Source: Patescibacteria group bacterium (GTDB lineage Bacteria; Patescibacteriota; Minisyncoccia; Minisyncoccales; RBG-13-36-15). From it: a DNA stretch of 59,268 nucleotides. Positions 41,953-59,268 of the stretch are shown piece after piece; the first letter of the stretch is position 1; each line of letters starts with the position of its first letter. The stretch lies in assembly GCA_022574775.1 (NCBI GenBank), contig JACZRI010000004.1:1-59268 (forward strand). The letters run 5' to 3'. Below the pieces are notes generated by a model. That model did not search any database. It saw nothing but the letters and a program-made list of their open reading frames with translations, and was not told the origin of the DNA. A program made the position numbers and the translations under genes.

Positions 41953-42272
41953 AATGCGAGCGAAATGAAAATTATCTCTAGAATTATTGCAACTTGCGTT
42001 GCAATTATAACTTTGTAGTAAAAAAATATCCCTAGAGATATAATTGTTCCTTACGCTATTTATTTATGAGTAAGCCGACCACTGTTTTTATTCTCTTTCA
42101 AAACTTACATAGTTAATAAATACGCAAGGAAAGGAAAATTAACAGAAACTTACCTTATTATAATAGCTTATCGTTGACAAAAAGTCACGGGTTTATTTTT
42201 TATTTCTATGCTTTTTTAAAAACCTGCGATGTTTTGTTCTGTTTCTATTTCTATTCGGATTGTGTGAGTTTT

Positions 42273-42488
42273 TCACATTTTCTTCTTCTTAGTATTTCTT
42301 TTTTCTCCGGATGGTAAAGAAGTAAGCCATAAAATAAATGGCCTCCGAAGTTTATCTATAGGCCAGTCATCGTTTTTAAAAAGTGATGCCTTATCTATTC
42401 TAAAACGAGAAAGTAAAGCTATTGTAACTTGCAGATTCAAAGGAGATAATCTGTTATGTTCTAATAAAAATTGTTCTTTTTTAGTCAT
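42273..42488 (-). CDS. hypothetical protein
   Basis: 71-aa ORF with a Lys-rich tail and no motif. Confidence 0.35.
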   Translation of the reverse strand: MTKKEQFLLEHNRLSPLNLQVTIALLSRFRIDKASLFKNDDWPIDKLRRPFILWLTSLPSGEKRNTKKKKM

Positions 42489-42635
42489 GTTAAAATTAAA
42501 AAAAATCTTAATTACTGTGAGTTACAAATAGTATTATTTATTACCCATCTGGAATAACGAATATACCTATTTATAATCAAAACTCTCAATTGATTCTATC
42601 TTACATTAATTCTTTTAAAAAATCAAGCTCTTGTC

Positions 42636-42658
42636 AAAAAACCGCCTTCTTGGCGATT
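42636..42658 (-). terminator. T-hairpin terminator copy
   Basis: Exact ACCGCCTTCTTGGCGAT core. On the minus strand the U-tract runs into TTGACA. Confidence 0.65.
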
Positions 42659-42703
42659 AAAAGTTGGGGTTCTCTGGTGCGACAAAATCAGAGGATTGTT
42701 CAT

Positions 42704-43111
42704 TTAAATACCATAAATATCTATAAAAATTCCTATAAGTAAAGCTATTAGAGAAAGTATGAAAATAACCGCTGCATTCCATCTTGATTTTGAAGTTACC
42801 GTGGTTTTGGCCAGATAATGAAGGGCTAACTTCTTTTGCGAATCAATGTCAGAATTATCTATAGCTTCAACCAGCTTGTAATCTTGAATCAATTTTGCTT
42901 TTTTCCTGGCAACATCAAAACGATGGCCAAAATAAAGGACAAAGCCGATGGTGCCAATATACCAAGCAATCTTTACCCATGAAGGACTGTAAAAATCCAA
43001 GACGATAATTATCCTATATGCAATTGTAGCGATTATTCCAGCCCAAAAGAAAAATAAACGAATTGGTTTTGGGTTTGGCTTTATGAGCTTTAGAATTCCC
43101 TTATCTTCCAT
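42704..43111 (-). CDS. membrane protein (4 TM helices)
   Basis: Start moved to MEDKGILK (ATG 43111), 6 nt after TACGAT. The upstream part of the track ORF runs through the terminator hairpins. Confidence 0.5.
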   Translation of the reverse strand: MEDKGILKLIKPNPKPIRLFFFWAGIIATIAYRIIIVLDFYSPSWVKIAWYIGTIGFVLYFGHRFDVARKKAKLIQDYKLVEAIDNSDIDSQKKLALHYLAKTTVTSKSRWNAAVIFILSLIALLIGIFIDIYGI

Positions 43112-43117
43112 TCCGTT

Positions 43118-43150
43118 ATCGTAACAAAAAACCGCCGTCTTGGCTATTTT
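43118..43150 (-). terminator. T-hairpin variant fused to extended -10 (TGTTACGAT)
   Basis: The minus strand reads AATAGCCAAGACGGCGGTTTTTTGTTACGATaacggaATG. Confidence 0.55.
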
Positions 43151-43154
43151 AAAA

Positions 43155-43178
43155 GAAAAAAGCAGTTTTTGCTGCTTC
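43155..43178 (-). terminator. intrinsic terminator
   Basis: The minus strand reads AAGCAGcaaaaaCTGCTTTTTTC. Confidence 0.6.
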
Positions 43179-43185
43179 ATCTCCT

Positions 43186-43294
43186 AGCTGGCTTGCGGGG
43201 CTTGGACGACGTTAGAACCTCTCTCCAGGGTATTTTGTTGTGTCTATTTCTGTTTAAAATAGGTATTACCCTACTCTGCTACTCGCTATTTCTT
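43186..43294 (-). repeat. type II boundary element (M1 + centre II + M2), copy E
   Basis: The minus strand reads AAGAAATAGCGAGTAGCAGAGTAGGGTAATACCTATTTTAAACAGAAATAG..CCTGGAGAGAGGTTCTAACGTCGTCCAAGCCCCGCAAGCC. The HAD ORF ends on its TAG. Confidence 0.8.
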
Positions 43295-43963
43295 AAGTTT
43301 ATGTAATATCTCCTCCAAATGGGTCACATTCTTTATAATATGTTTAACGCCTAAATTTTGTGCCTCTTCTTGGTTTAAATGACCAGTTAAGACAACAATC
43401 GGCGTAATGCCTGCGTTCTTTGCCATCTGGACATCGCTTTGAGCATCCCCAACTAAAACTGTCTCGTTAGGTAAAGTATTTTGTGACTTCATTATTGTTT
43501 CGAGCATAAAAGGATGCGGCTTTAATTTACTTGGGTCATCTATATCGTAAGAGGTAACAATCTTTGTAAAAACATCTGGAATATCGAATTTAGGTATAAT
43601 TCTCTCTTTTAATAACTTTGGATGAACACCCGTGGCAAGGGCAAGAGTATAATTTCTTTGTAATTTATTAAGCAACTCTCGGCTTCCCGGCACTATACTT
43701 AGACAATCAACAAATGTATTTCCAAATAGAATATCTTCATATATCTTACAAGCTCTATCTATAAACTCTGGATGTTCCTTTAATAATTCAGTAAGCCCTT
43801 CTCTATGAGTCTTTCCCCATTGTGATAAGATTCTTCTTTTTTCTTCTTCGGAATCCAAATGAATTCCTAATTGCGTTATGGTCTCGTGATAACATTTAAA
43901 ATACCCTTCTTTAGAACCAAGGGTAAATACATCGTCCCAGTCGAAAATTATAAGTTTAATCAT
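43286..43963 (-). CDS. HAD-superfamily hydrolase
   Basis: Motif I IIFDWDDVF (DxD) and motif IV ..VGDAQSDVQMA.. Confidence 0.8.
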   Translation of the reverse strand: MIKLIIFDWDDVFTLGSKEGYFKCYHETITQLGIHLDSEEEKRRILSQWGKTHREGLTELLKEHPEFIDRACKIYEDILFGNTFVDCLSIVPGSRELLNKLQRNYTLALATGVHPKLLKERIIPKFDIPDVFTKIVTSYDIDDPSKLKPHPFMLETIMKSQNTLPNETVLVGDAQSDVQMAKNAGITPIVVLTGHLNQEEAQNLGVKHIIKNVTHLEEILHKLKK

Positions 43964-43975
43964 ATGATTTTTTTT

Positions 43976-44092
43976 ATAGCTGCGGAGCGTGAAAGAAGTT
44001 AGAACCTGGATTATGGCTAATAGCGCTACTTTCAGAGTACCTGATCTCGCTCCACAGACTTAGTTACCCTACCCTACTACTCACTATTTCTT
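43976..44092 (-). repeat. type I boundary element (M1 + centre I + M2 variant), copy A
   Basis: About 117 nt, one of four near-identical copies. It has a 10-bp closing stem CTGTGGAGCG/CGCTCCGCAG and inner stems TGAAAG/CTTTCA. Confidence 0.85.
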
Positions 44093-44095
44093 ATA

Positions 44096-44596
44096 TTACC
44101 TACAATTATTGCAGATACCAATTACCTTTCGGGAAGTAAAATAAAGAGAAAATAACATAAAAGCTAAGGCTATAAAGAACACCCACCATTGATACTGAAT
44201 AAGAAAGCTAACAGTCCCAAATCCTAAAAATCCAAAAAGTGATGCGATACACATCGGACAGGAAGCAGCTCCGAAAATGGAAGCGAACGTCCCGGAAATA
44301 CTTCCCACACCACCTTTAGCCAGCGCTCCAAGCCGATCTTTTGACTGTTTGTAGATATACACATTCATCAGAATAAAAAGCGAGCCAAGTATAGAGAGTG
44401 CCGCAAGGGTAATATAGTCGAAAGGAATGTAGAGAGAAAATTGCAGTTATAGTGTATTTGAAGGAATTGCAATGAGTGGTATCGCCACAAAAAAGATGAA
44501 AAAGGCGAGAGAAAATGGCAAGAAAAGTATGCGATACATTTTTTCTCGAAGAATAACCTTTGCAGCAGAAAAGATTGTTTGAGGATAACGAAACAT
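44096..44596 (-). pseudogene. paralog of the CxxC membrane protein 46022..46537, interrupted by an in-frame TAA
   Basis: Track ORFs 44447..44680 and 44096..44368 share one frame. Read through TAA (44447-44449), the translation ..IPSNTL*LQFSLYIPFDY.. aligns with ..IPANTISFQLSIFTIRDY.. of the paralog. The ATG at 44596 lies 1 nt after the ccdA stop. Confidence 0.6.
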
Positions 44597-44597
44597 A

Positions 44598-45455
44598 TTA
44601 TGGGAAAAGTATATTAGTAAATACTGTAATGAAAATAGAAGAAAGGATAAGAAAAGCTCCGACAATAAGAAGCAGCACACCGCTTACTCGTTGGATGGCA
44701 ACAGTTGATTGACGAAGACTCTGGAGTAAAGTTTCTTTAGAAAAAGCAATGAGCAGTGATACAACAATCATAAGCACCGCCATAACTAATGAGTAAATAA
44801 TAAAAGCAAGGAAGGCATCTGCGAAACCGCCCCGAGAAAGGGCAAATACAAAAAGTATAGCCATAATCGGTCCTCCACAACCAATGCCAAGTAATGAATA
44901 GCCAAAGCCATAAGCATAGAGTTTTCTAAACTTTGCTTGTTTTTCTTGCGGAGATGATTTCGGATGCCAAAGATGCCCTAATTTCCCAAAAGGATTCCCT
45001 TTACCTGTCGCGTGGCTAAAGCCAAGATATAGAATAAATATACCCGCAATACCACGAAGCCATCTTACAGATATACTTGGGTTTTCTCCTGCAAGCCCCA
45101 ATGATTTTCCAAAACCAGCTCCCAAAATACCAATACCAACACCGAGCAAAAGATTAAATGTGATAAGACCTAATGCTGCTGCTAATCCAGAAAGAAGCAG
45201 TTGCTCCTTTGGCTTTTTGTTTTCACCTTCTTTCGTTGTGTAGTATTGGGCAAGATAAACTGGAAGCAAAGGAAAGGCACAAGGGTTAAAAAAACTTGCT
45301 ACTCCTGCGACTACAGCTACGAACAGTAACCCAAAAGCAACACTTCCTTTCATTATGTTGATAACAAACCAAATGAAGAGACCGTAGCCGCCTGCAACAA
45401 GTGCAAGAATCAAGAAAATAAATAGGAATAATTTCAAATTGAGTTTTGGTATCAT
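44598..45455 (-). CDS. ccdA: CcdA/DsbD-family thiol-disulfide electron transporter
   Basis: ..FFNPCAFPLLPVYL.. and a second conserved Cys region (..GIGCGGP..). Multi-TM protein. Confidence 0.8.
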   Translation of the reverse strand: MIPKLNLKLFLFIFLILALVAGGYGLFIWFVINIMKGSVAFGLLFVAVVAGVASFFNPCAFPLLPVYLAQYYTTKEGENKKPKEQLLLSGLAAALGLITFNLLLGVGIGILGAGFGKSLGLAGENPSISVRWLRGIAGIFILYLGFSHATGKGNPFGKLGHLWHPKSSPQEKQAKFRKLYAYGFGYSLLGIGCGGPIMAILFVFALSRGGFADAFLAFIIYSLVMAVLMIVVSLLIAFSKETLLQSLRQSTVAIQRVSGVLLLIVGAFLILSSIFITVFTNILFP

Positions 45456-45481
45456 AACATTTGTCGCTTAAGATATTGTTA

Positions 45482-46018
45482 TCAGTTAGTTAGTGCTCTA
45501 GCCACAATGTTGCGTAAAGTCTCTGCGGTAGTTATAGAGCTGTCTTGATAAATAATATCGCTATTTTTATCTACGATAACAGTCTCATCTAATGACTTAA
45601 TCCCATATAAGTTAATAAAACCTGATTGGAATCCGAAATACCACTCACCATCTGCTCCGTAGGTCTGCTGAAACCTTAATAAATCTGCTGGCGTTGACCG
45701 TTCTGGTTGAATATCAAAAGACATCACCACAAGCCCTTTTTCTTGAAACTCTTGAAAGACTTTTTTAACCTCTCCTGCTTGGAGTTTACAGCTTGGACAC
45801 CACGCTGCCATAGCTTGTAAGATAACTACTCTTCCCCTGAACTGCGATAAACTTATCTCTTGTCCCTCTGTTGAGATAAAGGATATTTGTGGTGCTTCTT
45901 TTATGGAATTCAGTGCTAACTCTGTAGTATTACCTTCTCCACCAGATTTCATCGAGGATAACAGAAAGAACCCTCCTATACCCACGAGCAAAATTAAAAG
46001 AATGCCTATAACTTTCAT
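45482..46018 (-). CDS. TlpA/ResA-like membrane-anchored thioredoxin
   Basis: Signal anchor and the WCPSC active site in a thioredoxin-fold context. Confidence 0.8.
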   Translation of the reverse strand: MKVIGILLILLVGIGGFFLLSSMKSGGEGNTTELALNSIKEAPQISFISTEGQEISLSQFRGRVVILQAMAAWCPSCKLQAGEVKKVFQEFQEKGLVVMSFDIQPERSTPADLLRFQQTYGADGEWYFGFQSGFINLYGIKSLDETVIVDKNSDIIYQDSSITTAETLRNIVARALTN

Positions 46019-46021
46019 TTT

Positions 46022-48337: not shown

Positions 48338-48360
48338 AAAAAATCGCCTTCTTGGCGATT
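48338..48360 (-). terminator. T-hairpin terminator copy (perfect AATCGCC/GGCGATT version)
   Basis: The minus strand reads AATCGCCAAGAAGGCGATTTTTTG. Confidence 0.65.
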
Positions 48361-48365
48361 GATTT

Positions 48366-48483
48366 CATAGCTGCGGAGCGTGAAAGAAGTTAGAACATGG
48401 ATTATGGCTAATAGAGCTACTTTCAGAGTACCTGATCTCGTCCCACGGGCTTAGTTACCTTACTCTGCTACTCGCTATTTCTT
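48366..48483 (-). repeat. type I boundary element, copy B
   Basis: Near-identical to copies A, C and D. The ORF 48475..48852 terminates on the TAG of its M1 block (..AAG AAA TAG CGAGTAG..). Confidence 0.85.
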
Positions 48484-48852
48484 AAAGTTTTTCGGCCAAC
48501 CGAGTAAAAAGAATAAAGCCAAAGGTGCTCCCCAGTTCGCCCAGCGTTCGACAAAATCCCAAATCGGATCGGACCCGAATGGCCAGCGAATCATTGCGGT
48601 CCAAAGACCCCAGATAGCCATCCAGAGAATTGCTATACGAACTGGTCTAATGAGGATAAGTAGAGCCAACGCTATATCCATAATGCCGACGAGGAAAAGA
48701 AGTATGGTGATTGTTTCGGTATTGGTAATACCGAATGTATAGAAATATTTGAACCAGCCCTCTTTTCCTTGGAGGGCAAACATGCCGTGACCAAAAAACG
48801 AGCCGGCAATAGCTATCCGCAGAACCCATTCGATTTTTTTTGAATTTTCCAT
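48475..48852 (-). CDS. DoxX-like small membrane protein
   Basis: 125 aa, 4 TM helices, ..LRIAIAGSFFGHG.. resembles DoxX-family N-termini. Confidence 0.5.
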   Translation of the reverse strand: MENSKKIEWVLRIAIAGSFFGHGMFALQGKEGWFKYFYTFGITNTETITILLFLVGIMDIALALLILIRPVRIAILWMAIWGLWTAMIRWPFGSDPIWDFVERWANWGAPLALFFLLGWPKNFKK

Positions 48853-48858: not shown

Positions 48859-48889
48859 ATCCTACCAAAAAACCGCCTTCTTGGCGATT
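48859..48889 (-). terminator. T-hairpin fused to extended -10 TGGTAGGAT, 6 nt before the ATG
   Basis: The minus strand reads AATCGCCAAGAAGGCGGTTTTTTGGTAGGATaagaatATG. Confidence 0.6.
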
Positions 48890-48894
48890 GATTT

Positions 48895-49008
48895 CATAGC
48901 TGCGGGGCGTGAAGAAGTTAGAACCTGGATTATGGCTAATAGTGCTACTTTCAGAGTACCTGATCTCGTCCCACGGGCTTAGTTATCCTGCCCTACTACT
49001 CACTATTT
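48895..49008 (-). repeat. type I boundary element, copy C
   Basis: Near-identical to A, B and D, with a one-base deletion in GTGAAG-AAG and a few substitutions. Confidence 0.85.
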
Positions 49009-49034
49009 AGTTTGCTTTATTTTTTGACATCATT

Positions 49035-49220: not shown

Positions 49221-50273
49221 CTATGGACGGCGTTTCACCACCACTGAATTATGGAGCTCCTCTCCTACCTTGATTTTCTTCACTACTTTCCTTTTCTCAA
49301 CATCAATGATGACTAGTTCGCCAGGCTTATATAAGGGAACAAAAGCAAGAGTTTTATCGGTCGAAAAGGAAATACCGTGCGGTGTTTCTCCAACAGTAAT
49401 TTGGCCAATAATCTTATTTTGCCCTACGTCAATAATAGAGATATAATGCGCTCCGATGTTAGTGACCCAAAGTTCTGTGTCGTTTTTAAAGACAGCAAAT
49501 TCAGTAGCAGCTCCGGTATCAATATGATTTATTTCTTCAAACGTTTCTGCATCTAAAAGATAAATAAAATTACTACCCAGGTTTGTAATAACAATACTAT
49601 TGCCATCAGGAGATAACGCCCAGCCGTGAGGATCAATACCCGAAGCCATCTCTTTTATCACTTTTGACTCAAAACCGTCATTCTTTAACACGGTTATTGA
49701 TCCTTCATCACCAAGATTGGTGGTAAAAATTTTAGAACCGTCTTTGGTAACCCCGATATATTCTGGGTAATCCCCGACATTGACCTTGGTTTGTTTCGTG
49801 AAGGTTGCGGTTTCAATAATCGACAGTGTATTTTCTCTGGCGTTTGCAATAAAAAGAAAGCTGCCATCTGGACTAAACACTACTCCGTGAGCACCATCCC
49901 CAGTTGTGATGGTTTTTTGTAAAGACAAACTCTGAACACTAATGACACTTATCGTATTACTGTAGAAGTTAGCTGTAACGACAAATTTGCCGTCTGGCGA
50001 GAGAGCGATATCATGCGGACCGTGATCAACTTTAATTCGTTTTACGATTTCCCCTTCTTTAGTAAGTACAATAACTTCATCATTTTTGGAATCCTCAACA
50101 AAAACAAGCTCCCTGGCTTCGCTTTCTTGCTCTTCATTTGGCAAGGATACTCCTTTTAATTCTTCTGGTTCTGGAGCTAAAACTTCTGTTCGTTCTTGCA
50201 AAACAAACCATCCTCCGAAAACAAGGAGACCCGTCAATGACAATATGAGTATCGGCAAAAACCTGCTAGGCAT
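49221..50273 (-). CDS. secreted YVTN-type beta-propeller repeat protein
   Basis: N-terminal TM/signal and repeated ..P(H)GIA/LSPDG..(Y)V(T)N.. units. Confidence 0.7.
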   Translation of the reverse strand: MPSRFLPILILSLTGLLVFGGWFVLQERTEVLAPEPEELKGVSLPNEEQESEARELVFVEDSKNDEVIVLTKEGEIVKRIKVDHGPHDIALSPDGKFVVTANFYSNTISVISVQSLSLQKTITTGDGAHGVVFSPDGSFLFIANARENTLSIIETATFTKQTKVNVGDYPEYIGVTKDGSKIFTTNLGDEGSITVLKNDGFESKVIKEMASGIDPHGWALSPDGNSIVITNLGSNFIYLLDAETFEEINHIDTGAATEFAVFKNDTELWVTNIGAHYISIIDVGQNKIIGQITVGETPHGISFSTDKTLAFVPLYKPGELVIIDVEKRKVVKKIKVGEELHNSVVVKRRP

Positions 50274-50283
50274 ATTATTGGAC

Positions 50284-51483
50284 TCAATTATTCTTAGGTT
50301 TCAAGCGGATAATTCTGTCGTCTTCTGTCGCCGGGTCGCCCCGTCCGTCTCGGTTGCTGGTAAGAATGTAGAGATTGCCATCCGGCCCCGGTTCTGCCGT
50401 TCTCAACCTTCCGAACTCATTTTCAAGGAGAAAATCATGCTCTTTTACTGATCTATAGTCTGAATCAAAGGTTACTCGGTGAAGGGCCCGTCTGCCCTCT
50501 CCCGGAGTAAATCCCAGGGCCGTGAAGTAGAGCTCTCCTCTCCAGAAAGAAGCTCCGGAGGGCGCCCAAGGTTTCTCTCCACTGCTGAGAATCGGGTCAA
50601 CATACTCTGGCTCACCCGCTTTGCCGGCAACCTCGGGCCAACCGTAATTGGCTCCGGGTTTAATGAGATTAACTTCATCACGACCCGGACCGCGGCCGCG
50701 CATGTCATTCGGATCCGGGCCATGCTCAGTAGCCCAAAGATCGCCGGTGGGACTCCAAGCCAAACCTTGAGGGTTTCTGTGTCCATAACTCCATACCGGA
50801 GAGTCGGGGAAAGGATTGTCTTCTGGCACCGTCCCGTCTGGATTTATACGAAGTATCTTCCCGGCCAGAGAGTTGAGGTCTTGAACAAGGTGCTCCCTGC
50901 CGGCATCTCCGGTGGTAATGTAGAGCTTTTCATCAGGACCGAACTTCATCCTTCCCCCATTGTGAATGCTTGTGCCCGGAATGCCATCCAAAATTACTTC
51001 GCTTATTTCGGCGTAGTCTCCCCTATCTACAAGTTTTAATACTCTGTTCCAAACCAAGCCATCTTCACCAACATAAGTATAATAAATATACACAAACCTG
51101 TTTCGGGAAAAATCGGGGTGCAGAGCAATCCCCAAAAGCCCGGTTTCTTGTCCGCCGGTATAAACATCAAGAATAAAGTAGGGATCTGGCAGAAACTCTC
51201 CGTTTTCTATAACTCGTATTCTTCCCGCCCTCTCGGTAACGAAAATCCTGTCTTCCCAAAAGTCCAGGTCCCAGGGAGCTTCAAGGTTTTCTGCTATCAC
51301 TTCCACTTCAAACCGACTGAAGGGAATATCTTCATCTGCCGAAGCACTCTCATCCGCAGGATGCTCGGATTGAGATGTTAAGGCCTTTTCTTCGGATAAA
51401 AATTGAATGCCAAAAAACCCGGCAATCAAAGCAGCGACAATAATAACGATAACAACAAAAGCAAATTTTATTTGGAAAGACAT
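50284..51483 (-). CDS. PQQ-dependent (soluble glucose/sorbosone) sugar dehydrogenase family protein
   Basis: ..GLLGIALHPDF.., ..GGR..FGPDG.LY.., ..GHRNPQGLAW.. motifs. Visibly GC-richer than its neighbours (hand count about 57% on line 50641-50700). Confidence 0.8.
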   Translation of the reverse strand: MSFQIKFAFVVIVIIVAALIAGFFGIQFLSEEKALTSQSEHPADESASADEDIPFSRFEVEVIAENLEAPWDLDFWEDRIFVTERAGRIRVIENGEFLPDPYFILDVYTGGQETGLLGIALHPDFSRNRFVYIYYTYVGEDGLVWNRVLKLVDRGDYAEISEVILDGIPGTSIHNGGRMKFGPDEKLYITTGDAGREHLVQDLNSLAGKILRINPDGTVPEDNPFPDSPVWSYGHRNPQGLAWSPTGDLWATEHGPDPNDMRGRGPGRDEVNLIKPGANYGWPEVAGKAGEPEYVDPILSSGEKPWAPSGASFWRGELYFTALGFTPGEGRRALHRVTFDSDYRSVKEHDFLLENEFGRLRTAEPGPDGNLYILTSNRDGRGDPATEDDRIIRLKPKNN

Positions 51484-51623: not shown

Positions 51624-51664
51624 CCTCTCGGTCGACCTCGATACTACGCTGACTGGTGCTGGCA
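51624..51664 (-). repeat. module 4 repeat, copy 1
   Basis: CCTCTCGGTCGACCTCGATACTACGCTGACTGGTGCTGGCA. One mismatch against 52944-52984. Confidence 0.8.
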
Positions 51665-52030: not shown

Positions 52031-52054
52031 AAAAAAACCGCCTTCTTGGCGATT
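52031..52054 (-). terminator. T-hairpin terminator copy
   Basis: Exact ACCGCCTTCTTGGCGAT core. It is the second of two back-to-back terminators. Confidence 0.65.
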
Positions 52055-52063
52055 TTGAAATAA

Positions 52064-52098
52064 ACAAAAAGGCGGTGGAATGTAATCGCACCGCTTTT
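52064..52098 (-). terminator. terminator of the GCGGTG..CACCGC family
   Basis: The minus strand reads AAAAGCGGTGcgattacattcCACCGCCTTTTTGTTT. Confidence 0.65.
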
Positions 52099-52167
52099 AT
52101 AGAACTTAAACTTATTTTCTGGCTCTTCTATCGTTTTTTAATCCGCTCTTTCAACCACAAAAGGTCT

Positions 52168-52299
52168 TCATGGCATCCTCTTTTCGCTGGACGACAAACG
52201 TTTTTGCCGAGCGATTCTCCCTGGCTTTTTTCTCATCGCCTTACGATGATCAAAGTTGGGGGTTCTTCTCTTTCTCCACATCCATCGTCTGTAATACAT
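52168..52299 (-). CDS. 43-aa polybasic small protein
   Basis: Not in the ORF track. It has SD AAAGGAGGG 5 nt before the ATG, its own TTGACA-17-TAATAT promoter and two terminators. Translation: MYYRRWMWRKRRTPNFDHRKAMRKKPGRIARQKRLSSSEKRMP. Confidence 0.45.
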   Translation of the reverse strand: MYYRRWMWRKRRTPNFDHRKAMRKKPGRIARQKRLSSSEKRMP

Positions 52300-52367: not shown

Positions 52368-52369
52368 AC

Positions 52370-52392
52370 AAAAACCGCCTTCTTAGCGATTT
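52370..52392 (-). terminator. T-hairpin variant (AATCGCTAAGAAGGCGGTTTTT)
   Basis: One stem mismatch. Follows the NADAR stop by about 25 nt. Confidence 0.55.
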
Positions 52393-52874: not shown

Positions 52875-52925
52875 ATTCTATCAAAAAACCGTCTTCCCCT
52901 CCATAGGCAGATAAATTGGCGATTT
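52875..52925 (-). terminator. T-hairpin variant with expanded loop, fused to extended -10 TGATAGAAT (9 nt before the ATG)
   Basis: The minus strand reads AATCGCCaatttatctgcctatggaggggaaGACGGTTTTTTGATAGAATacaactattATG. Confidence 0.5.
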
Positions 52926-52943
52926 TGAAATTCGTAAATAACA

Positions 52944-52984
52944 CCTCTCGGTCGGCCTCGATACTACGCTGACTGGTGCTGGCA
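52944..52984 (-). repeat. module 4 repeat, copy 2
   Basis: CCTCTCGGTCGGCCTCGATACTACGCTGACTGGTGCTGGCA. Confidence 0.8.
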
Positions 52985-53030
52985 CAGAACCAGTCGGTTC
53001 GTGCCTAGCAACGCACCGTATGGTACTGTT

Positions 53031-53122
53031 GCTGCGGGGCGTGAAAGAAGTTAGAACCTGGATTATAGTTAATGGCGCTACTTTCAGAGTACCTGATCTC
53101 GCTCCACAGGCTTAGTTACCCT
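53031..53122 (-). repeat. type I boundary element, copy D (M1 truncated)
   Basis: Same centre I and M2 variant as A-C. M1 is cut after GGGTAAC and abuts a GCGGTG-type terminator. Confidence 0.85.
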
Positions 53123-53129
53123 TCTAAAT

Positions 53130-53160
53130 AAAAAGGCGGTGGGATGTTATCGCACCGCTT
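53130..53160 (-). terminator. terminator of the GCGGTG..CACCGC family
   Basis: The minus strand reads AAGCGGTGcgataacatcCCACCGCCTTTTTATTT. The ORF stop TAA lies in the loop. Confidence 0.6.
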
Positions 53161-53576: not shown

Positions 53577-53578
53577 AC

Positions 53579-53604: not shown

Positions 53605-53622
53605 CGGACGACGTTAGAACCT
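53605..53622 (-). repeat. partial M2 core
   Basis: The minus strand reads AGGTTCTAACGTCGTCCG, 20 nt after the SRPBCC stop. Confidence 0.7.
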
Positions 53623-54054: not shown

Positions 54055-54156
54055 AGCTGCGGGGCTTGGACGACGTTAGAACCTCTCTCCAGGATATTTT
54101 ATGTCCTATTTCTGTTTAAAATGGGTATTACCCCACCCCGCTACTCACTATTTCTT
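54055..54156 (-). repeat. type II boundary element, copy F
   Basis: The minus strand reads AAAGAAATAGTGAGTAGCGGGGTGGGGTAATACCCATTTTAAACAGAAATAGG..CCTGGAGAGAGGTTCTAACGTCGTCCAAGCCCCGCAGCT. Confidence 0.8.
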
Positions 54157-54248
54157 TATTTAAAAAGCAAAAGTCTCCTAACTGGCTGCTAAGAGACCTT
54201 CTTGAGCCGAAGCCCTTATTGGGAGATGGGAAATCAGTTGTTCAGGTC

Positions 54249-54509: not shown

Positions 54510-54528
54510 TTTTACCTCCTCTATTCCT

Positions 54529-54557
54529 ACTATACATCCATACTTTAAATTTGTCAA
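54529..54557 (-). promoter_or_regulatory. promoter TTGACA-17-TATAGT
   Basis: The minus strand reads TTGACAaatttaaagtatggatgTATAGT, 19 nt before the ATG. Confidence 0.6.
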
Positions 54558-54558
54558 G

Positions 54559-54682
54559 AAAAAAATGCCAGGGACAGAGTTGCTATTCTCTACCCCTGGC
54601 TTGAGGTGGTTAGGCTGGTAGGCTTTACCGAAATAGGGAGGGAACCCTAAGATTTTCGGCTTAGCACCACAGCCAGACCTAT
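54559..54682 (-). ncRNA. candidate independent small RNA (~120 nt) with its own promoter-like box and terminator
   Basis: Lies between TTGACA (54711-54716) and the hairpin GCCAGGG..CCCTGGC plus U7 (54559-54600). Internal stems are CCGAAA/TTTCGG and TAGGG/CCCTA. The terminator loop carries GCAACTCTGT. A separate promoter for the next gene follows. Confidence 0.35.
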
Positions 54683-54718
54683 CTATAAGTTAGCATAGAT
54701 TACAAATACCTGTCAAAC

Positions 54719-54744
54719 AAAAAACCGCCTTCTTGGCGATTTTT
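54719..54744 (-). terminator. T-hairpin terminator copy
   Basis: Exact core. The U-tract is fused to TTGACA. Confidence 0.65.
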
Positions 54745-54757
54745 AAGAATAAAAGAG

Positions 54758-55354
54758 CTATCTACCTGCGTTCGGGATTTTAAGCCATTTATTCGCTGTC
54801 AAATGCCAGTCTGCAACATTTGCTTCTTGGATTTTATCCCATAGTCCTCTTGCAGATTTGGTATATAATTTTTCGTTGCGAACCTGTTTGCGAAACCTTC
54901 TCCATTTTTTCGGTAATTGCGATCCTCTTTCCTCAAGCTCTTTGAGTTCCAAGTCTATATCTAAATTATCTGCGTCTTTCACAATTTTTGCTTCTTTTGA
55001 TTTTCTTTCTTCATATTCTTTGAGAATATCTTTATGAAAATTAGCTAAACTTGTTTTTGTAAAAGTATCTTTTGCTGCCAGGTTTCCTTGCTCTTTCACA
55101 TAAACCTTTTGAACGTAGCTATGATCTGCTGTCCTTATTTCTGCTATATCATGTATCAGGGCCATTTTGATAATTTTTTCTTCATTTTTTACTTTCTCTT
55201 TTCTTGCAAGAATGAGGGCTAACCAGATAACTCGTAAAGTATGTTCTAAAACACTTGCGCAGTCCATTCCTAAATGCTGGCGCCATCCTCGCGGGACATT
55301 GCGAAGCGATCCAACCTCAAATAGAAATTCTATATCTCTTTTATTCACAGCCAT
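54758..55354 (-). CDS. HD-domain phosphohydrolase (YfbR-like 5'-nucleotidase family)
   Basis: ..EHTLRV.., ..LIHDIAE.. and ..D.LD.. are the H..HD..D metal ligands. Confidence 0.75.
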   Translation of the reverse strand: MAVNKRDIEFLFEVGSLRNVPRGWRQHLGMDCASVLEHTLRVIWLALILARKEKVKNEEKIIKMALIHDIAEIRTADHSYVQKVYVKEQGNLAAKDTFTKTSLANFHKDILKEYEERKSKEAKIVKDADNLDIDLELKELEERGSQLPKKWRRFRKQVRNEKLYTKSARGLWDKIQEANVADWHLTANKWLKIPNAGR

Positions 55355-55417
55355 AATTTAATTTTCGGATATTATATTTATTCTATATCAAATTTTTTAA
55401 TCGAACAAGCCAAAAAC

Positions 55418-55441
55418 AAAAAAACCGCCTTCTTGGCGATT
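55418..55441 (-). terminator. T-hairpin terminator copy
   Basis: Exact core, preceded by M2 copy H. Confidence 0.65.
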
Positions 55442-55447
55442 GATTTT

Positions 55448-55486
55448 CATAGCTGCGAGGCTTGGGCAACGTTAGAACCTGTTTAA
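55448..55486 (-). repeat. M2 core copy H
   Basis: The minus strand reads TGA-TGTTAAACAGGTTCTAACGTTGCCCAAGCCTCGCAGCTATG, starting right at the Nudix stop. Confidence 0.75.
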
Positions 55487-55488
55487 CA

Positions 55489-55896
55489 TCAATTTAATGA
55501 GAATAATGCCTTCAGCCAATCTCCTCTAAGTGGTAATTGTTTTATATCATCCTTAGTAAACCATTTCACGTCTAATAAATCTTCTTTATCAATTTTTAAT
55601 TCTCCTCCTATTATTTCACCCTCAAAAAAGTTTAATTCTATTATTTTATCATTATCCTTCTCCCCACCTTTGTATTCTGACCCAGCTACTATTTTAGATT
55701 CTAATTTTCTAATTATTTTAATAGTATAACCAGTTTCTTCTTTTGTTTCCCGTATTGCACTTTCTTCTAACGATTCCTCTGGATCCACGTGTCCAAGAGG
55801 AATTGACCACAATCCCAAAGATTGCCCTTTTTCTTGAACCAAGAGAATCCTATCATCTTTCTCTATGTAAACACCAACTACCTTGACTTTATCCAT
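55489..55896 (-). CDS. NUDIX hydrolase
   Basis: Nudix box GHVDPEESLEESAIRETKEETGY. Confidence 0.85.
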   Translation of the reverse strand: MDKVKVVGVYIEKDDRILLVQEKGQSLGLWSIPLGHVDPEESLEESAIRETKEETGYTIKIIRKLESKIVAGSEYKGGEKDNDKIIELNFFEGEIIGGELKIDKEDLLDVKWFTKDDIKQLPLRGDWLKALFSLN

Positions 55897-55937
55897 TATT
55901 TCATTCTATCAAAAAACCGCCTTCTTGGCGATTTTTT
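55897..55937 (-). terminator. T-hairpin fused to extended -10 TGATAGAAT, 6 nt before the ATG
   Basis: The minus strand reads AAAAAATCGCCAAGAAGGCGGTTTTTTGATAGAATgaaataATG. Confidence 0.65.
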
Positions 55938-55954
55938 AATAAATATTGGATATA

Positions 55955-56479
55955 TTATGATTTACTACTTAAACGCATATAAATACACTTTGCTTTAAGT
56001 CTTTTAGGCCACTCTGCCCAATGACGATAGAAAGCCTTTTTCTTTCGGTCAATCTTAAATCCCCATTTTTTATACATATTAATTGTTTTAAGTTGATGCG
56101 CGTATATATCAAGGGTAATATCTTTACGCTTAGCAAAATTTAAAGCATGCTTCCAGAGTTGTTTCCCTATTCCTCGCCCTTGATACTTAGGCAAAACGTA
56201 AAATCCTCTTAGCTCATACTCCTTACCTTTATCAGTACGAGTAATGGAACCTATCATCTCTGATTTTAAAAAAACGACCCATGTTTTTTGCTTTTTAGTT
56301 AAGGTAAGATTTGATCTCAGATAATCTTGTATTCTTAAAGAAGAAAATACTTTTTTTGAGAAATGTTTCTTTGTTAATCCGATTTTTTTATTGGTATAAG
56401 CATCTTGAAATGTTTTTTGATGCAAAATGGTATATGCGACGAGGTCACTTTTTTTCGCTAGTCTTATGGAAAGTTTCAT
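55955..56479 (-). CDS. GNAT-family N-acetyltransferase
   Basis: Acetyl-CoA motif ..VLPKYQGRGIGKQLW.. Confidence 0.8.
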   Translation of the reverse strand: MKLSIRLAKKSDLVAYTILHQKTFQDAYTNKKIGLTKKHFSKKVFSSLRIQDYLRSNLTLTKKQKTWVVFLKSEMIGSITRTDKGKEYELRGFYVLPKYQGRGIGKQLWKHALNFAKRKDITLDIYAHQLKTINMYKKWGFKIDRKKKAFYRHWAEWPKRLKAKCIYMRLSSKS

Positions 56480-56510
56480 AAATAAAGTTAATGAATAAAT
56501 GTATTGTTTA

Positions 56511-56541
56511 ATCCTACCAAAAAACCGCCTTCTTGGCGATT
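56511..56541 (-). terminator. T-hairpin fused to extended -10 TGGTAGGAT
   Basis: The minus strand reads AATCGCCAAGAAGGCGGTTTTTTGGTAGGAT. Here the ATG is 31 nt downstream. Confidence 0.6.
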
Positions 56542-56560
56542 GATTTATGGCCTATCAAAT

Positions 56561-56656
56561 GGGACTCAAAACGAACCCGTCTCGGTCAGGGTGTTTTTAA
56601 GCTAAAATGAGACAAATGAGACACTACTTAAGGGTATATTTTGGTGTCTCGTTCCA
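56561..56656 (-). repeat. module 5 repeat, copy 1
   Basis: The minus strand reads GAGACACCAAAATATACCCTTAAGTAGTGTCTCATTTGTCTCATTT..CCCTGACCGAGAC. It contains the GAGACAC/GTGTCTC hairpin. Confidence 0.75.
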
Positions 56657-56717
56657 AAAAATTGTGGATCTTTTTTAGGCAGTATACCTTTAATTTCTTA
56701 GCGCCTTTTTTCTTTCT

Positions 56718-57941
56718 CTATTCAATAAATGTTAGCGCCATCCCCCGTTTATTCCAACGACCGGTCCGACCGATGCGATGAATGTAGTCAGTATAGGTTG
56801 CAGGTATGTCATAGTTTATGACGTGACTGATGTCTGCAATATCCAGTCCACGGGCTGCAACATCAGTTGCTACCAGCACCTGAATGTTATTATTCTTGAA
56901 TAAACCCAGGGCTCTTTGGCGCTGAGAGTTATTCTTGTTTCCATGTATGGATTCCACCTTAAAACCGTTGTTAAAAAGCGTTTTTGACAGTCTCTCCACC
57001 CCGTGCTTGGTTCTTCCGAAGATAAGAACCTTGTTGAATTCTATCTGATTTAAAAGTTCATTAAGAACATCTAATTTGGTCTTTCCGCGCTCTATTCTGA
57101 TAATATTCTGTTCAACGTTTTCTGCGGTGTCTCTGGTCTTGACCGAAACCCTGATCGGGACCCTAAGAAACTCTTTAATAAACCTTTCTATATCATGGGA
57201 AAGAGTGGCTGAGAAAAAAAATACTTGGCGATCTTTAGGCATTCCATTCATTATGAAACGGGTGTCATTTATAAATCCCATATCAAGCATCCGGTCTGCT
57301 TCATCCAGCACTATATTATTGAACCTGGATAAATTGATCATTTTTTTCTCTGCCAGATCCTTCAATCTTCCGGGTGTTCCGATGATTGCGTTGTATTTGT
57401 AGCGGAGATTTGAAATCTGCCTGCCTATACTCATTCCCCCTACGCAGCAAACGGAAAACAGCCTCATTCCCTTGGTAAATGATTTGAATTCCTGATCTAT
57501 CTGCAAGGCAAGTTCTCTAGTCGGAGCAATAATCAAAACCTGTTCTTTTGGGTTAATTATGATTTTATTGATTAGAGGTAAAAGAAAAGCAGCTGTTTTT
57601 CCCGTTCCGGTATTAGCAACTCCAACAATATCAGAACCGTTGATGGCGTAAGGAATAACCTTGTCCTGAATCGGCGTAGGCACTTTATAACCCCTGGCCG
57701 CAACAATCTGCTTCAGGCTTTGGTCAATCTTAAAATCCTGAAACTTGTGTTCAGGTTTAAAAATATCAACTTTTTCGGCCATAACCGCTTTGTTGATAAA
57801 TTTGACGGGGTTTATTCTTTCCCCGCCCGAGCCCTTCTTCTGTCCCCTATTAAAGGAATTAGAACGGCCTCTTCTCTTGAATCGAGAAGATTTGAACAAG
57901 AATTTTCTTGATCTATCGTTTTTAAAACTTCTTCTGTGCAT
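56718..57941 (-). CDS. DEAD-box ATP-dependent RNA helicase with basic N-terminal extension
   Basis: Motifs ANTGTGKT (I), DEAD (II), SAT (III) and HRIGRTGR (VI). Confidence 0.9.
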   Translation of the reverse strand: MHRRSFKNDRSRKFLFKSSRFKRRGRSNSFNRGQKKGSGGERINPVKFINKAVMAEKVDIFKPEHKFQDFKIDQSLKQIVAARGYKVPTPIQDKVIPYAINGSDIVGVANTGTGKTAAFLLPLINKIIINPKEQVLIIAPTRELALQIDQEFKSFTKGMRLFSVCCVGGMSIGRQISNLRYKYNAIIGTPGRLKDLAEKKMINLSRFNNIVLDEADRMLDMGFINDTRFIMNGMPKDRQVFFFSATLSHDIERFIKEFLRVPIRVSVKTRDTAENVEQNIIRIERGKTKLDVLNELLNQIEFNKVLIFGRTKHGVERLSKTLFNNGFKVESIHGNKNNSQRQRALGLFKNNNIQVLVATDVAARGLDIADISHVINYDIPATYTDYIHRIGRTGRWNKRGMALTFIE

Positions 57942-58140
57942 ATTTTTTAAAGGGAATTACCCCCATAACATCTAGTCATTATAAATAAAAAAAGGCGACT
58001 AGTTAGTCTCCGAGTTTTCAGATAAAACGCTAAGGCTTTAAAATTTTTAAGAGAGTGTTCCTAAAAAATAAAAACTATGAGATTCAATTATATTAATAGT
58101 ATATATCAATACTAATATTTTGTCAATCTTTTATACCTGA

Positions 58141-58173
58141 ATTCTAACAAAAAATCGCTAATAAGGCGATTTT
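58141..58173 (-). terminator. T-hairpin variant (AATCGCCttattAGCGATTTTTT) fused to TGTTAGAAT
   Basis: The stem is ATCGC/GCGAT. TAGAAT lies at 58141-58146. Confidence 0.5.
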
Positions 58174-58219
58174 AGAATTCGTAAATAACGAGTCTCGGTC
58201 ACCTGACTTAGCATAGGAT

Positions 58220-58305
58220 GGCTGCGGGGCTTGGACGACGTTAGAACCTGTTTGATGGCAATTTAGCAGGGGGGTCGTCTAGCGGATGAAATTAGAACCT
58301 GTTTT
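58220..58305 (-). repeat. M2 core, full copy plus a degenerate tandem half copy
   Basis: The minus strand reads AAACAGGTTCTAATTTCATCC..(31 nt)..AAACAGGTTCTAACGTCGTCCAAGCCCCGCAGCC. Confidence 0.75.
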
Positions 58306-58309
58306 GGAT

Positions 58310-58341
58310 AAAAAAAGGCCTCTGAGCGAAAGCTAGAGGCT
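58310..58341 (-). terminator. intrinsic terminator
   Basis: The minus strand reads GCCTCTagctttcgctcAGAGGCCTTTTTTT. Confidence 0.65.
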
Positions 58342-58357
58342 TAGGAAATGAATATAA

Positions 58358-58615
58358 TTAAAGACGCCTTATCTTCTTATTGAGTGTCCTTAGTTTTATC
58401 CAACCGATAAAAAGGAAACAAAGAGCAGTAATAATCGTAGCACATCCTAATACAAGTAGCAGTATCGCACCTTGGTTCGGTAAATGACTTATTCCAATAC
58501 CAATTGCAAGTGCAGAGAAAGTCCATATAACAGGATTCTTGATCCAATCAATTCTTTCTTTCCATTTTCGCCATTCATAATTAAGATCGCTTCTTCTATC
58601 AACGTCTAGCTGCAT
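58358..58615 (-). CDS. small membrane protein
   Basis: 85 aa with two TM helices. Confidence 0.4.
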   Translation of the reverse strand: MQLDVDRRSDLNYEWRKWKERIDWIKNPVIWTFSALAIGIGISHLPNQGAILLLVLGCATIITALCFLFIGWIKLRTLNKKIRRL

Positions 58616-58684
58616 TACTCATAACCCCCTTCTGGTGTGCTGTTTTCAGCTTAGCAAGTCTTAAAAATATATCAAGCCTGAAAC

Positions 58685-58709
58685 CAAAAAACCGCCTTCT
58701 TGGCGATTT
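58685..58709 (-). terminator. T-hairpin terminator copy
   Basis: Exact core. Confidence 0.65.
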
Positions 58710-58769
58710 TCTCGTAGCTGGCATCCTCGGTCTAGAACCTATGTTTTAAGGGGAAATTCGGGGGTTTGG

Positions 58770-58863
58770 GGCGTGTCTCATTGACGTGTCTCGGTCGGGA
58801 TGCTTTGTTCGGGAAATGAGACAAATGAAATAGTCCTTAAGGGTATGTTTTGGTGTCTCATTT
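58770..58863 (-). repeat. module 5 repeat, copy 2
   Basis: The minus strand reads GAGACACCAAAACATACCCTTAAGGACTATTTCATTTGTCTCATTT..CCCGACCGAGACACGTCAATGAGACAC. Confidence 0.75.
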
Positions 58864-58955
58864 TGGAATCTTCCTTCCGTCGCGCCCAGCGCAATAACCA
58901 AATCCTTAAATCTCTTTTATTGAAGTATTAAAACACGAGTAGTTTTTGTAAATAT

Positions 58956-59264
58956 TCATTGAAAAAGCTTTGCTAAATTTTGATTTTCTCTTGCAGAAAC
59001 AATAATCCTAGAAATAGATATTAAATTGGAAATTACGGCAATTAATATTAATGTAGGAAATATTAAACCTGTTATTCCCGCGAACATAATAAGAAGAAGT
59101 CTTCCTGGTCTTTTAAATTTAGGCCCATACCACACAAGATTACGATTTGTTATGTCGCGGTGCTTGGCAGGTAGATAATTAAGAAGTGCAAGCCCCATGA
59201 TCGCAAATGTTGCAATGGGCCAAACTAATGCATTTTGACTAATTATCCAATAGCCATAAGCCAT
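58956..59264 (-). CDS. membrane protein
   Basis: 102-aa ORF with three hydrophobic helices. It lies next to the window edge. Confidence 0.4.
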   Translation of the reverse strand: MAYGYWIISQNALVWPIATFAIMGLALLNYLPAKHRDITNRNLVWYGPKFKRPGRLLLIMFAGITGLIFPTLILIAVISNLISISRIIVSARENQNLAKLFQ

Positions 59265-59268
59265 ACCA

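Follow-up and report, generated by a model that had tools for sequence, protein, structure and literature searches.

Results

Gene content and setting of the stretch

We analyzed a stretch of 59,268 nucleotides (contig JACZRI010000004.1 of assembly GCA_022574775.1, positions 1 to 59,268 of the forward strand; hereafter the window), which is part of a small Patescibacteria chromosome (Paceibacteria, Candidatus Nealsonbacteria-like). Our subject is the accessory run of short genes that occupies its right-hand part (Table 1) and the intergenic modules that separate these genes: a hairpin (T), a stop-codon block (M1) and a motif with the 3' end of a tRNA-Gln gene (M2). An original prediction, made from the letters of the window, had described the run as an integron-like gene-capture array, with a mosaic of the kind known as bacterial interspersed mosaic elements (BIME) or repetitive extragenic palindromes (REP) as a second option. 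The second option is the better description; the modules are dispersed, intergenic and found clade-wide.

The relatives of the TypA protein and of the DEAD-box helicase place the host near Candidatus Nealsonbacteria within the Patescibacteria. The nearest GTDB genome seen is the metagenome-assembled genome (MAG) Bin_194, whose TypA is 89% identical with a synonymous divergence (dS) of 0.27. Pfam scans found core genes at 13.7-37 kb (L25, glycolysis enzymes, FtsZ, GreA, IspG, IspH, TypA) and GNAT, Nudix, HD, SRPBCC, NADAR and DoxX-type genes in the accessory stretch. This content, taken from Pfam and the list of open reading frames (ORFs), agrees with the earlier description, as does the variation in guanine-plus-cytosine (GC) content, which ranges from 0.25 to 0.49 among the accessory units.

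The minus strand carries all of the genes from 13.7 to 59.3 kb, and the GC skew agrees with this. The co-orientation that had been read as a mark of an array is thus real but not special; it is not a property of the array because the minus-strand run, with matching skew, begins already at 13.7 kb. At 12500-15200 two convergent genes meet, prfA (+) ending at 13696 and an SLT-domain gene (-) at 13736, and the skew switches from positive to negative at ~14 kb. A replication terminus may lie at this position, and the accessory stretch would then be ~30-45 kb away from it.

The run passes the window edge, as the original prediction had supposed. Two contigs (L001 and L002), which are 99.8-99.9% identical to the window, reach 3.1 and 6.9 kb beyond 59268, and the genes continue there for at least 6.9 kb with five further junction repeats and more small genes. 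A comparison of related contigs for units present in one strain and absent from another had been proposed; L001 and L002 are the sole other contigs of the species, both are colinear with the window, and no such polymorphism was seen in them.

Table 1. Positions of the accessory run, its junction modules and two notable transcription units in the window
Feature	Position	Strand	Basis or remark
Accessory run: ~20 short co-oriented, mostly monocistronic genes with modular junctions	41953..59268	minus	ORFs, Pfam, junction map
T, exact copy AATCGCCAAGAAGGCGGTTTTTT	58686..58708	minus	pattern scan, fold, terminator score
T, copies with at most 2 mismatches	56519-56541, 55911-55933, 55419-55441, 54719-54741, 52369-52391, 52032-52054	minus	
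T, further copies with at most 2 mismatches	48867-48889, 48338-48360, 43126-43148, 42636-42658, 35370-35392, 3841-3863	minus	
T, loop-variant or split copies	58174-58141, 53604-53571, ~52926-52880, ~41451-41351	minus	
Predicted full T promoter of the Nudix gene	55896..55933	minus	hairpin, T-run, TGATAGAAT (extended -10), 6 nt, ATG
Predicted full T promoter design, DoxX-like gene	48888->48852	minus	T-site classification
T with predicted extended -10 and longer leader, GNAT gene	56540	minus	T-site classification
Putative T promoter, NADAR gene, split T	~52890->52865	minus	read from the sequence only, not confirmed by classifier
Putative T promoter, 158-aa protein	~43126->43107	minus	read from the sequence only, not confirmed by classifier
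Putative T promoter, efflux operon, split T	~41375->41348	minus	read from the sequence only, not confirmed by classifier
M1, three-frame stop AAGAAATAGCGAGTAGCAGAGTAAGGTAA	48455..48483	minus	last two codons and stop of the DoxX-like gene
M1, other copies	54128-54156, 48983-49011, 44064-44092, 43266-43294; partial 37814-37833	minus	43266-43294 holds the HAD stop codon
Type A unit (M1, centre A, diverged M2)	43966..44093, 48357-48484, 48885-49012	minus	128 nt
Type A unit with truncated M1 head	53145-53018	minus	then homologue of the Bin_194 tRNA-Gln(UUG) trailer, 53030-52995 (span 52995..53145)
Type B unit (M1, centre B, M2)	54056..54156; second copy 43192-43294	minus	
M2, GGTTCTAACGTCG + TCCAAGCCCCGCAGCCA	58249-58221	minus	TCCAAGCCCCGCAGCCA is the last 17 nt of tRNA-Gln
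tRNA-Gln(CUG)-type trailer after M2	58220-58195	minus	M2 + trailer composite is 58195..58249
Second M2 + trailer composite	51746-51692	minus	
M2 half copy GGTTCTAACGTCGTCC	53606..53621	minus	joined straight to T-like hairpin (53604-53571)
JE module	58862-58814; second copy 56653-56605	minus	repeat search, homologues elsewhere
JF module	58805-58717	minus	ends in second tRNA-3'-end-like motif GGTTCTAGACCGAGGATGCCAGC, recurring at 51680-51658
JD module GCCAGCACCAGTCAGCGTAGTATCGAGGYCGACCGAGAGG	51624..51663; second copy 52944-52983	minus	also in Bin_194 and other genomes
GSDH (PQQ-type sugar dehydrogenase, GC 0.49) and beta-propeller pair	49221..51483	minus	foreign
DEAD-box helicase unit	56617..58134	minus	TTGACA/TATACT promoter, ~190-nt leader, coding sequence (CDS), 3' hairpin

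A terminator-like hairpin fused to a predicted promoter

A pattern scan with up to 3 mismatches found 13 copies of T, all on the minus strand; 11 of these fall within 42.6-58.7 kb and the others at 35370 and 3841. When its flanking A and T runs are counted in, T forms a hairpin of 11 pairs (dG -12.5 kcal/mol, z -4.7). It was scored as terminator-like by terminator prediction, and its hairpin and T-run have the sequence form of an intrinsic terminator. This agrees with the hairpin described before, but T appears to be more than a terminator, as it is fused to what is predicted to be the promoter of the next gene.

The arrangement is evident from 117 T sites in other genomes, where T lies at a median of 95 nt past the stop codon and 23 nt ahead of the next start. 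Of the 105 sites that could be classified, 92 have T in the orientation of the upstream gene, and at 84 of the 117 both flanking genes share its orientation. A GnTAnnnT motif follows directly 3' of the T-run at 76 of the 117 sites (GGTAGAAT in 36), and an ATG is found 4-9 nt past this motif in 49 of these 76, with 6 nt as the commonest spacing. Because the ATG lies ~6 nt past the putative -10 box, transcription is predicted to begin with the A of the ATG or a neighbouring nucleotide, which would give leaderless mRNAs. Several window genes have the same design (Table 1). For the Nudix gene a promoter scan, which was independent of the T-site classification, returned TCGCCA-17-TAGAAT with an upstream TG at 55931. 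The T-run can also pass into a -35-like sequence: it continues as TTGAC at 54740, 52390, 35391 and 3862, and the promoter scan found TTGACA-17-AAGAAT right after T at 42637.

GTDB genomes yielded the exact 21-mer of T in 111 or more 8-kb stretches, nearly all from Patescibacteria; this count, like that of M1 below, is a lower bound. Among the T-bearing sequences are three complete Nealsonbacteria chromosomes, and single MAGs can carry T on several contigs. At one locus (L083) T lies between the genes for VIT1, FtsJ, UPF0182, PurD and a GTPase, and in other genomes it follows directly on real tRNA genes. Since T is placed between housekeeping genes and after tRNAs, we regard it as a shared terminator-plus-promoter module and not as a cassette boundary. 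It would terminate the upstream transcript and restart transcription.

Two other roles for T were considered and rejected. As a DNA-uptake sequence it should not be confined in the way it is: each of the 13 AAAATCGCC half-sites belongs to an intergenic hairpin, and genes contain none. As a relic of the 5' half of tRNA-Gln it has a resemblance to the D and anticodon arms of the E. coli tRNA only, and the tRNA-Gln of the clade itself gives no support.

Some further features were seen around the T hairpins. Three of them (41351-41451, 52880-52926 and L083 9690-9750) retain the ATCGCC...GGCGGT stem and the T-run but have 20-70 nt of additional sequence in place of the loop, owing either to an extension of the terminator stem or to an insertion into T. 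The window also has another terminator-type hairpin, AAAAAGGCGGTG...ATCGCACCGCTTTT, which differs from T and is shared by two sites, 34221-34271 after ispG and 52059-52109 after a basic micro-ORF of 43 aa. This highly basic 43-codon ORF (52168-52299, -) is preceded by a TTGACA-17-TAATAT promoter of its own, immediately behind a T copy, and may be a real micro-protein gene. A candidate small RNA lies at 54560-54700 (-), where TTGACA directly follows a T copy and a strong 13-pair terminator (54600-54567) stands ~130 nt downstream, ahead of the own promoter of an 86-aa gene; the candidate has no Rfam match.

A three-frame stop block at the 3' ends of genes

M1 has stop codons in all three frames within 27 nt. 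Four copies were found with up to 3 mismatches, and to these can be added a copy with 4 mismatches (49011-48983), a partial copy (37833-37814) and a 5'-truncated one in the unit at 53 kb. The ORFs 43286..43963 (HAD) and 48475..48852 (DoxX-like) terminate on the TAG of M1. This had been offered as evidence that genes were joined to a pre-existing boundary element, and the argument is sound: the stop codons come from M1. The DoxX-like protein is conserved across Patescibacteria, and since its homologues end in ...KNFKEWLK and the window copy in ...KNFKK*, M1 has displaced the last 3-4 codons and so replaced the C-terminus. The use of M1 as a stop codon is frequent elsewhere as well. Among 93 copies with an upstream ORF of at least 60 codons, this ORF stops inside M1 in 27 (~29%), at the first TAG in 18, at the second TAG in 8 and at the TAA in 1.

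The M1 19-mer GAAATAGTGAGTAGYAGRG is present in at least 120 metagenome contigs. An M2-like motif follows +80 to +120 nt past M1 in 29 of 123 copies; these constitute families D and E, which have the same M1-centre-M2 plan as the window, and the whole composite of M1, centre, M2, trailer and T recurs in unrelated samples. The two alternative junction centres that had been described are both present in the window, four times in type A units and twice in type B units. Type A folds no better than shuffled sequences (z +0.5 and +2.2), while type B at 54.1 kb is more stable than its shuffles (z -3.2). The type A centre had no match in JGI metagenomes, and a search of the window and of examples of families D and E against Rfam, with gathering and E-value thresholds, gave only matches at chance level.

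M2, a probable relic of tRNA-Gln genes

Five M2 copies with up to 3 mismatches are present, all on the minus strand, compared to none in shuffled sequences; the repeat search raises the family to eight members when the diverged copies in the 128-nt units are counted. The tRNA-Gln genes of the clade end in ...CTTGGTTCGAATCCAAGCCCCGCAGCCA. M2 has the order GGTTC, TAACGTCG and then TCCAAGCCCCGCAGC(CA), and the final 17 nt match the 3' end of tRNA-Gln exactly. The similarity extends beyond the gene. Alignment (A1) shows that the trailer past M2 at 58.2 and 51.7 kb matches the sequence after tRNA-Gln(CUG) in L177, and ~60 nt at 53.0 kb match the trailer after tRNA-Gln(UUG) in Bin_194. In both of these genomes the tRNA-Gln trailer leads into a T promoter and then the next gene. 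Because the trailers match those of two isoacceptor genes, the window junctions copy the native series of tRNA-Gln 3' end, trailer and T. M2 and the sequence that follows it are probably relics of tRNA-Gln genes, consisting of the 3' end and the native trailer. In locus L191 the tRNA-Gln gene and the M2 copies alike end in GCAAC and not in GCAGC.

The type A units carry a related signal. A second alignment (A2) shows that their 3' ~40 nt (AATCCAGGTTCTAAC...CGCYCCGCAGC) are homologous to a segment of tRNA-Gln made up of the variable loop, the T arm and the 3' strand of the acceptor. Only this part aligns securely, and an upstream complement to the acceptor strand is present. The type A unit may therefore be a decayed copy of a whole tRNA-Gln(CUG), as the sequence similarity suggests, although neither ARAGORN nor Rfam calls it a tRNA. 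ARAGORN found no intact tRNA in the window, L001 or L002, and in particular no intact tRNA-Gln in the window or L002. A tRNA-like acceptor helix was not evident: at M2-like sites the acceptor-like strand has no 5' partner beyond shuffled controls. The M2 pattern had no match in GTDB representative genomes.

Other modules are found close to the M2 copies. JE and JF, which together span 58717..58862, are common to many other genomes. A tRNA-like fold of JF was rejected as 17 homologues do not conserve the closing helix seen in the window. A scan of viral contigs for the M2 head, which tested for a phage or plasmid attP, gave two matches, one of them chance-like. The other (L198 14690-14819, IMGVR_UViG_3300009529_003397) is on a GC-rich phage contig with terminase and capsid genes, which ends in ~130 nt of AT-rich sequence resembling that of the candidate phyla radiation (CPR). 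The composition switches exactly after the M2-like motif (...CAGGTTCTAACATCGTCCAGTTCCCGGAGC), with no integrase nearby; this is either a true insertion junction or an assembly chimera.

The modules are oriented, dispersed and restricted to a clade

The occurrence of all three repeats is far above chance and every match is on the minus strand, which bears out the repeats as they were first described. In a self-BLAST of the window 134 of the 135 high-scoring segment pairs between repeats are same-strand, and nearly all of them fall within 42.6-58.9 kb, with outliers at 3.8, 34.2, 35.4 and 37.4 kb. In related genomes the modules stand between housekeeping genes, such as those for an rlmE/FtsJ-type methyltransferase, purD, a GTPase and TypA. 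This dispersal over contigs and between core genes is largely the distribution that the original prediction had named as the mark of a dispersed repeat, and it argues against a gene-capture platform. The kit is restricted to a clade and is not phylum-wide: 1.25 Mb from 80 other Patescibacteria species, chosen for TypA only, contained no M1, no M2-like motif and almost no T.

We also looked for enzymes that could move the modules. As had been noted, no integrase or transposase is present among the window ORFs scanned with Pfam. A search for a recombinase past 59268 had been suggested, and none was found over the next 6.9 kb. When 2.9 Mb of module-bearing loci were searched by tblastn with a CPR Xer-like protein, a single-query search of low sensitivity, Xer-like genes came up in L166 and L202 only, none of them beside modules.

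Foreign and exchanged transcription units

The gene set of the region is flexible and partly foreign. The best named relatives of the GSDH protein, at no more than 59% identity, are from archaea, Armatimonadota and Chloroflexota, with no close relative in Patescibacteria; this gene is foreign because its nearest relatives lie outside the phylum. The pair is flanked by M2, trailer and JD upstream and by M1, type A and T downstream.

The DEAD-box helicase unit has moved recently between this host and a distant lineage. Its DNA is 93% identical to that of L083 and L085, where the gene lies directly upstream of the TypA gene, yet the TypA proteins of these loci are only 64% identical to that of the window. 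With respect to this distant lineage dS is 0.18 for the helicase and 2.4 for the RRM gene, while that of TypA is saturated. The low dS of the helicase against the saturated value of TypA therefore indicates that a single transcription unit was exchanged recently. One end of the homologous segment lies 8 nt before the -35 box and the other within the JE hairpin, close to modules but outside M1, M2 and T. The neighbours of the helicase gene differ in every genome examined. In Bin_194 (L137, JAHCSE010000004.1, 524-3674) TypA is directly followed by a DEAD-box helicase that is only 56% identical to that of the window, and the helicase-TypA neighbourhood has been rebuilt more than once.

The RRM and 71-aa units, which are adjacent in the window, are apart in other genomes, with breakpoints at promoter edges. 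The foreign GSDH, the exchanged helicase unit and the separable RRM and 71-aa units together identify the region as flexible.

The leader of the helicase unit (57942-58134, -) is 82-93% conserved in five other genomes and has a terminator-like hairpin GGAGACTAACTAGTCGCCTTTTTTT. It has no Rfam family match and may be an attenuator or an autoregulatory leader.

Other features of the window

At the left end of the window (1-1000) the GC content is 58% compared to ~37% elsewhere, and the ORFs there have no Pfam matches. A fatty-acid desaturase is divided over two ORFs (644-1072 and 1097-1639), which suggests a frameshift in the gene or faulty assembly where the contig ends. A direct repeat of 129 nt with 77% identity (21113-21241 and 23736-23864) sits within two small ORFs, 20830-21324 and 23423-23872, on either side of an acetyl-CoA synthetase gene; these ORFs are probably paralogous genes.

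Discussion

The account that we favour, and which we hold to be probable though far from certain, is that the accessory region is flexible and that between its units stands an oriented boundary kit made of modules, similar in kind to BIME and to the neisserial intergenic mosaic elements (NIME) and spread over a clade. Almost every gene would be its own transcription unit, with boundaries made from shared intergenic modules. M1 would first shut all three reading frames and often supply the real stop codon. The T hairpin between its A and T runs would then end the upstream transcript, and the T-run, which merges into an extended -10 box (TGnTAGAAT) or into a TTGACA -35 box, would restart transcription. 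The start would often lie ~6 nt before, or at, the A of the ATG and so produce a leaderless mRNA. The tRNA-Gln relics would be carried along with the kit, which may have been copied many times through recombination. In this way unrelated genes would come to have the same flanks, and these probably ease the swapping and domestication of single units, including foreign ones.

Several points weigh against this account. The part of the genome that is visible, window and extensions together, is ~76 kb. The predicted terminators, promoters and leaderless starts rest on sequence statistics. By a count from the ORF and repeat maps, modules are present at ~17 of 20 accessory junctions but in only 4 of 12 gaps of at least 60 nt in the core part. 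The 23-nt hairpin, including its loop, and the 19-nt M1 core are identical across genomes with TypA only ~64% identical; such identity exceeds what a terminator or promoter needs and hints at active copying or a sequence-specific binding factor. Finally, the constant M2-like head ACAGGTTCTAACRTCGTCC is unlike the T arm of a real tRNA. In combination with a Gln-like or Asn-like end and the matching trailer it resembles an attR-type junction more than the product of simple decay.

This last point leads to the alternative that the units are non-autonomous gene cassettes. Their att site would consist of the M1/centre/ACAGGTTCTAACRTCGTCC arm and a block of identity to the tRNA-Gln/Asn 3' end, and an unlinked tyrosine integrase would insert them serially into tRNA 3' ends or earlier scars. 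M2 and trailer would then be attR-type junctions, and M1 the outer edge of the site, which would have evolved to stop translation in any frame. The logic would be that of an integron with tRNA-like sites in place of attC. Displaced tRNA fragments at the ends of islands are a general principle (PMC4383910, PMC9897764), and M2 has this anatomy, with a non-tRNA head, then the final 17 nt of tRNA-Gln in exact form and the native trailer. In other genomes the same head is joined to tRNA-Asn-like ends (...GGAGC) and then the tRNA-Asn trailer. The cassette account also accommodates the coding ends cut by M1 junctions, the DoxX-like CDS between two type A + T blocks and the horizontal transfer of single units, as well as a difference from Bin_194, where the RRM unit has a real tRNA-Gln(UUG) ~2 kb ahead of it; in the window ~10 kb of other genes and only a pseudo-copy take that place. 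We nevertheless consider it unlikely. The low-sensitivity search described above revealed no integrase beside the modules in 2.9 Mb, nor is there one in the window or its 6.9-kb extension; the window and L002 have no intact tRNA-Gln, and the inverted partner site is absent from the window. In addition, the trailer is duplicated at several junctions, which is unexpected from an exchange at a short core site, the variable part of the M2-like copies often mismatches the resident tRNA, and the colinear contigs L001 and L002 reveal no presence/absence polymorphism. Cassette-like behaviour thus survives as a weak, unproven reading.

The modules could also act as RNA. The M1-centre-M2 block of ~110-130 nt would be transcribed as a structured 3' untranslated region (3'-UTR) that serves as a stabiliser, a processing signal or a mimic of a tRNA end (...GGAGCCA/...GCAGCCA), and the three-frame stop would exclude ribosomes from it. 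Families D and E repeat this plan in many genomes, an encoded GCCA stands at the end of many copies, and RNAalifold pairs AGUGAGUA of M1 with UACUCAUU ~75 nt downstream in 12-13 of the 13 members of family E. The paired segments are invariant in both families, and RNAalifold found no compensatory covariation. While the favourable fold of type B at 54.1 kb is compatible with such an RNA, type A folds no better than shuffles, the acceptor-like strand lacks a 5' partner beyond the shuffled controls, there is no Rfam match and M1 often occurs without M2. We judge a role of this kind to be quite unlikely.

Enzymes of the REP-associated tyrosine transposase (RAYT) and IS200/IS605 Y1 type recognise hairpins flanked by GTAG and insert in one orientation relative to replication. 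The strict single-strand orientation of the modules, the GTAG motifs in M1, the T loops with inserted material (~52.9 kb, ~41.4 kb and L083 9700) and the high copy number across genomes might thus point to repeats of the REP or miniature inverted-repeat transposable element (MITE) type, spread by such a transposase encoded elsewhere. The orientation bias, however, is fully explained by gene direction, as the modules follow transcription. M1 is not palindromic, the junction sequences have no terminal inverted repeats or target duplications, inverted M1 or M2 copies do not occur, and the window ORFs scanned include no Y1 or other transposase. This origin is very unlikely.

There is next to no chance that the run is a canonical chromosomal integron, or a cluster of attC sites lacking integrase (CALIN), with the junction repeats as attC: the co-oriented small genes are of kinds common in cassettes (GNAT, Nudix, HD, SRPBCC, NADAR, DoxX) and the junction units have an attC-like length of ~100-130 nt, but a heuristic scan of both strands at 41.9-59.3 kb gave no RYYYAAC...GTTRRRY pair with L-box complementarity (shuffle mean 0.1), type A lacks the imperfect-palindrome fold, intI is missing from the window ORFs (Pfam) and the next 6.9 kb, most units have their own predicted promoter (strong TTGACA promoters in several), and the modules are dispersed genome-wide between core genes. 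The integron-like gene-capture array of the original prediction is therefore not upheld.

The Patescibacteria, or CPR, have tiny genomes and no cultured genetics, and their transcription punctuation and gene shuffling are almost uncharted; in the literature that could be searched we found no paper on these repeats, or on integron arrays, in this group. For one CPR clade the boundary kit provides predictions of promoters, terminators and leaderless starts, and T, M1 and the M2-like motif are sequence tags that can help gene calling and binning. The kit accounts for how foreign genes such as GSDH may gain native expression signals, and it is possibly tied to the gene order of the clade, which is scrambled at the level of single transcription units. 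Conservation of the 23-nt hairpin and the 19-nt stop block might reflect a sequence-specific factor, concerted evolution or active mobility. If the cassette account were true, it would reveal a gene-capture system with integron-like logic and unrelated parts across a Patescibacteria clade. The region also illustrates that an array with the looks of an integron can arise from dispersed boundary repeats.

Comparison with known systems

The closest likeness is to the BIME/REP of Enterobacteria, to NIME and to Correia elements. These are also built from short modules in variable order, are intergenic and located at the 3' ends of transcription units, and are dispersed, high-copy and clade-specific, with terminator or promoter activity in some copies. 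The window modules differ in that they are strictly oriented with transcription and do not appear to be built on a palindromic REP with a RAYT. The T palindrome has no GTAG head, M1 has GTAG but is not a palindrome, and the window ORFs scanned include no RAYT. They also have what these families lack, a tRNA-gene-end module, a three-frame stop block and a terminator that is predicted to be fused to the promoter of a leaderless gene.

The kit resembles putative mobile promoters (PMC3575422) since near-identical T and -10 sequences, sometimes with the tRNA-Gln trailer, precede unrelated genes within and between genomes. In contrast to these, the reused piece would double as a terminator of the upstream gene and it travels with tRNA-derived and stop modules, and its copy number is far above that of typical reported groups. 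The tRNA fragments at island ends (Islander, PMC4383910; PMC9897764) are comparable to M2, which has the exact tRNA-Gln 3' end and trailer in the manner of an attR scar. Here, however, neither an integrase nor an intact partner tRNA was found in the window and its extension, single genes of 0.3-2 kb take the place of islands of 5-100 kb, one region holds many copies and the trailer is duplicated with the fragment.

Integron arrays and CALINs share with the accessory run the co-oriented, small, unrelated genes of cassette type with repeats of ~100-130 nt between them. They are set apart from it by attC architecture and intI, while the run has a predicted promoter for most units and repeats that are dispersed and not confined to the array. 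The T module, finally, is similar to the overlapping terminator-promoters of compact genomes, in which a hairpin and U-tract 3' of one gene are closely followed by a -10 box. Unlike in ordinary terminators, the whole 23-30 nt, including the loop, are the same at dozens of sites and across species.

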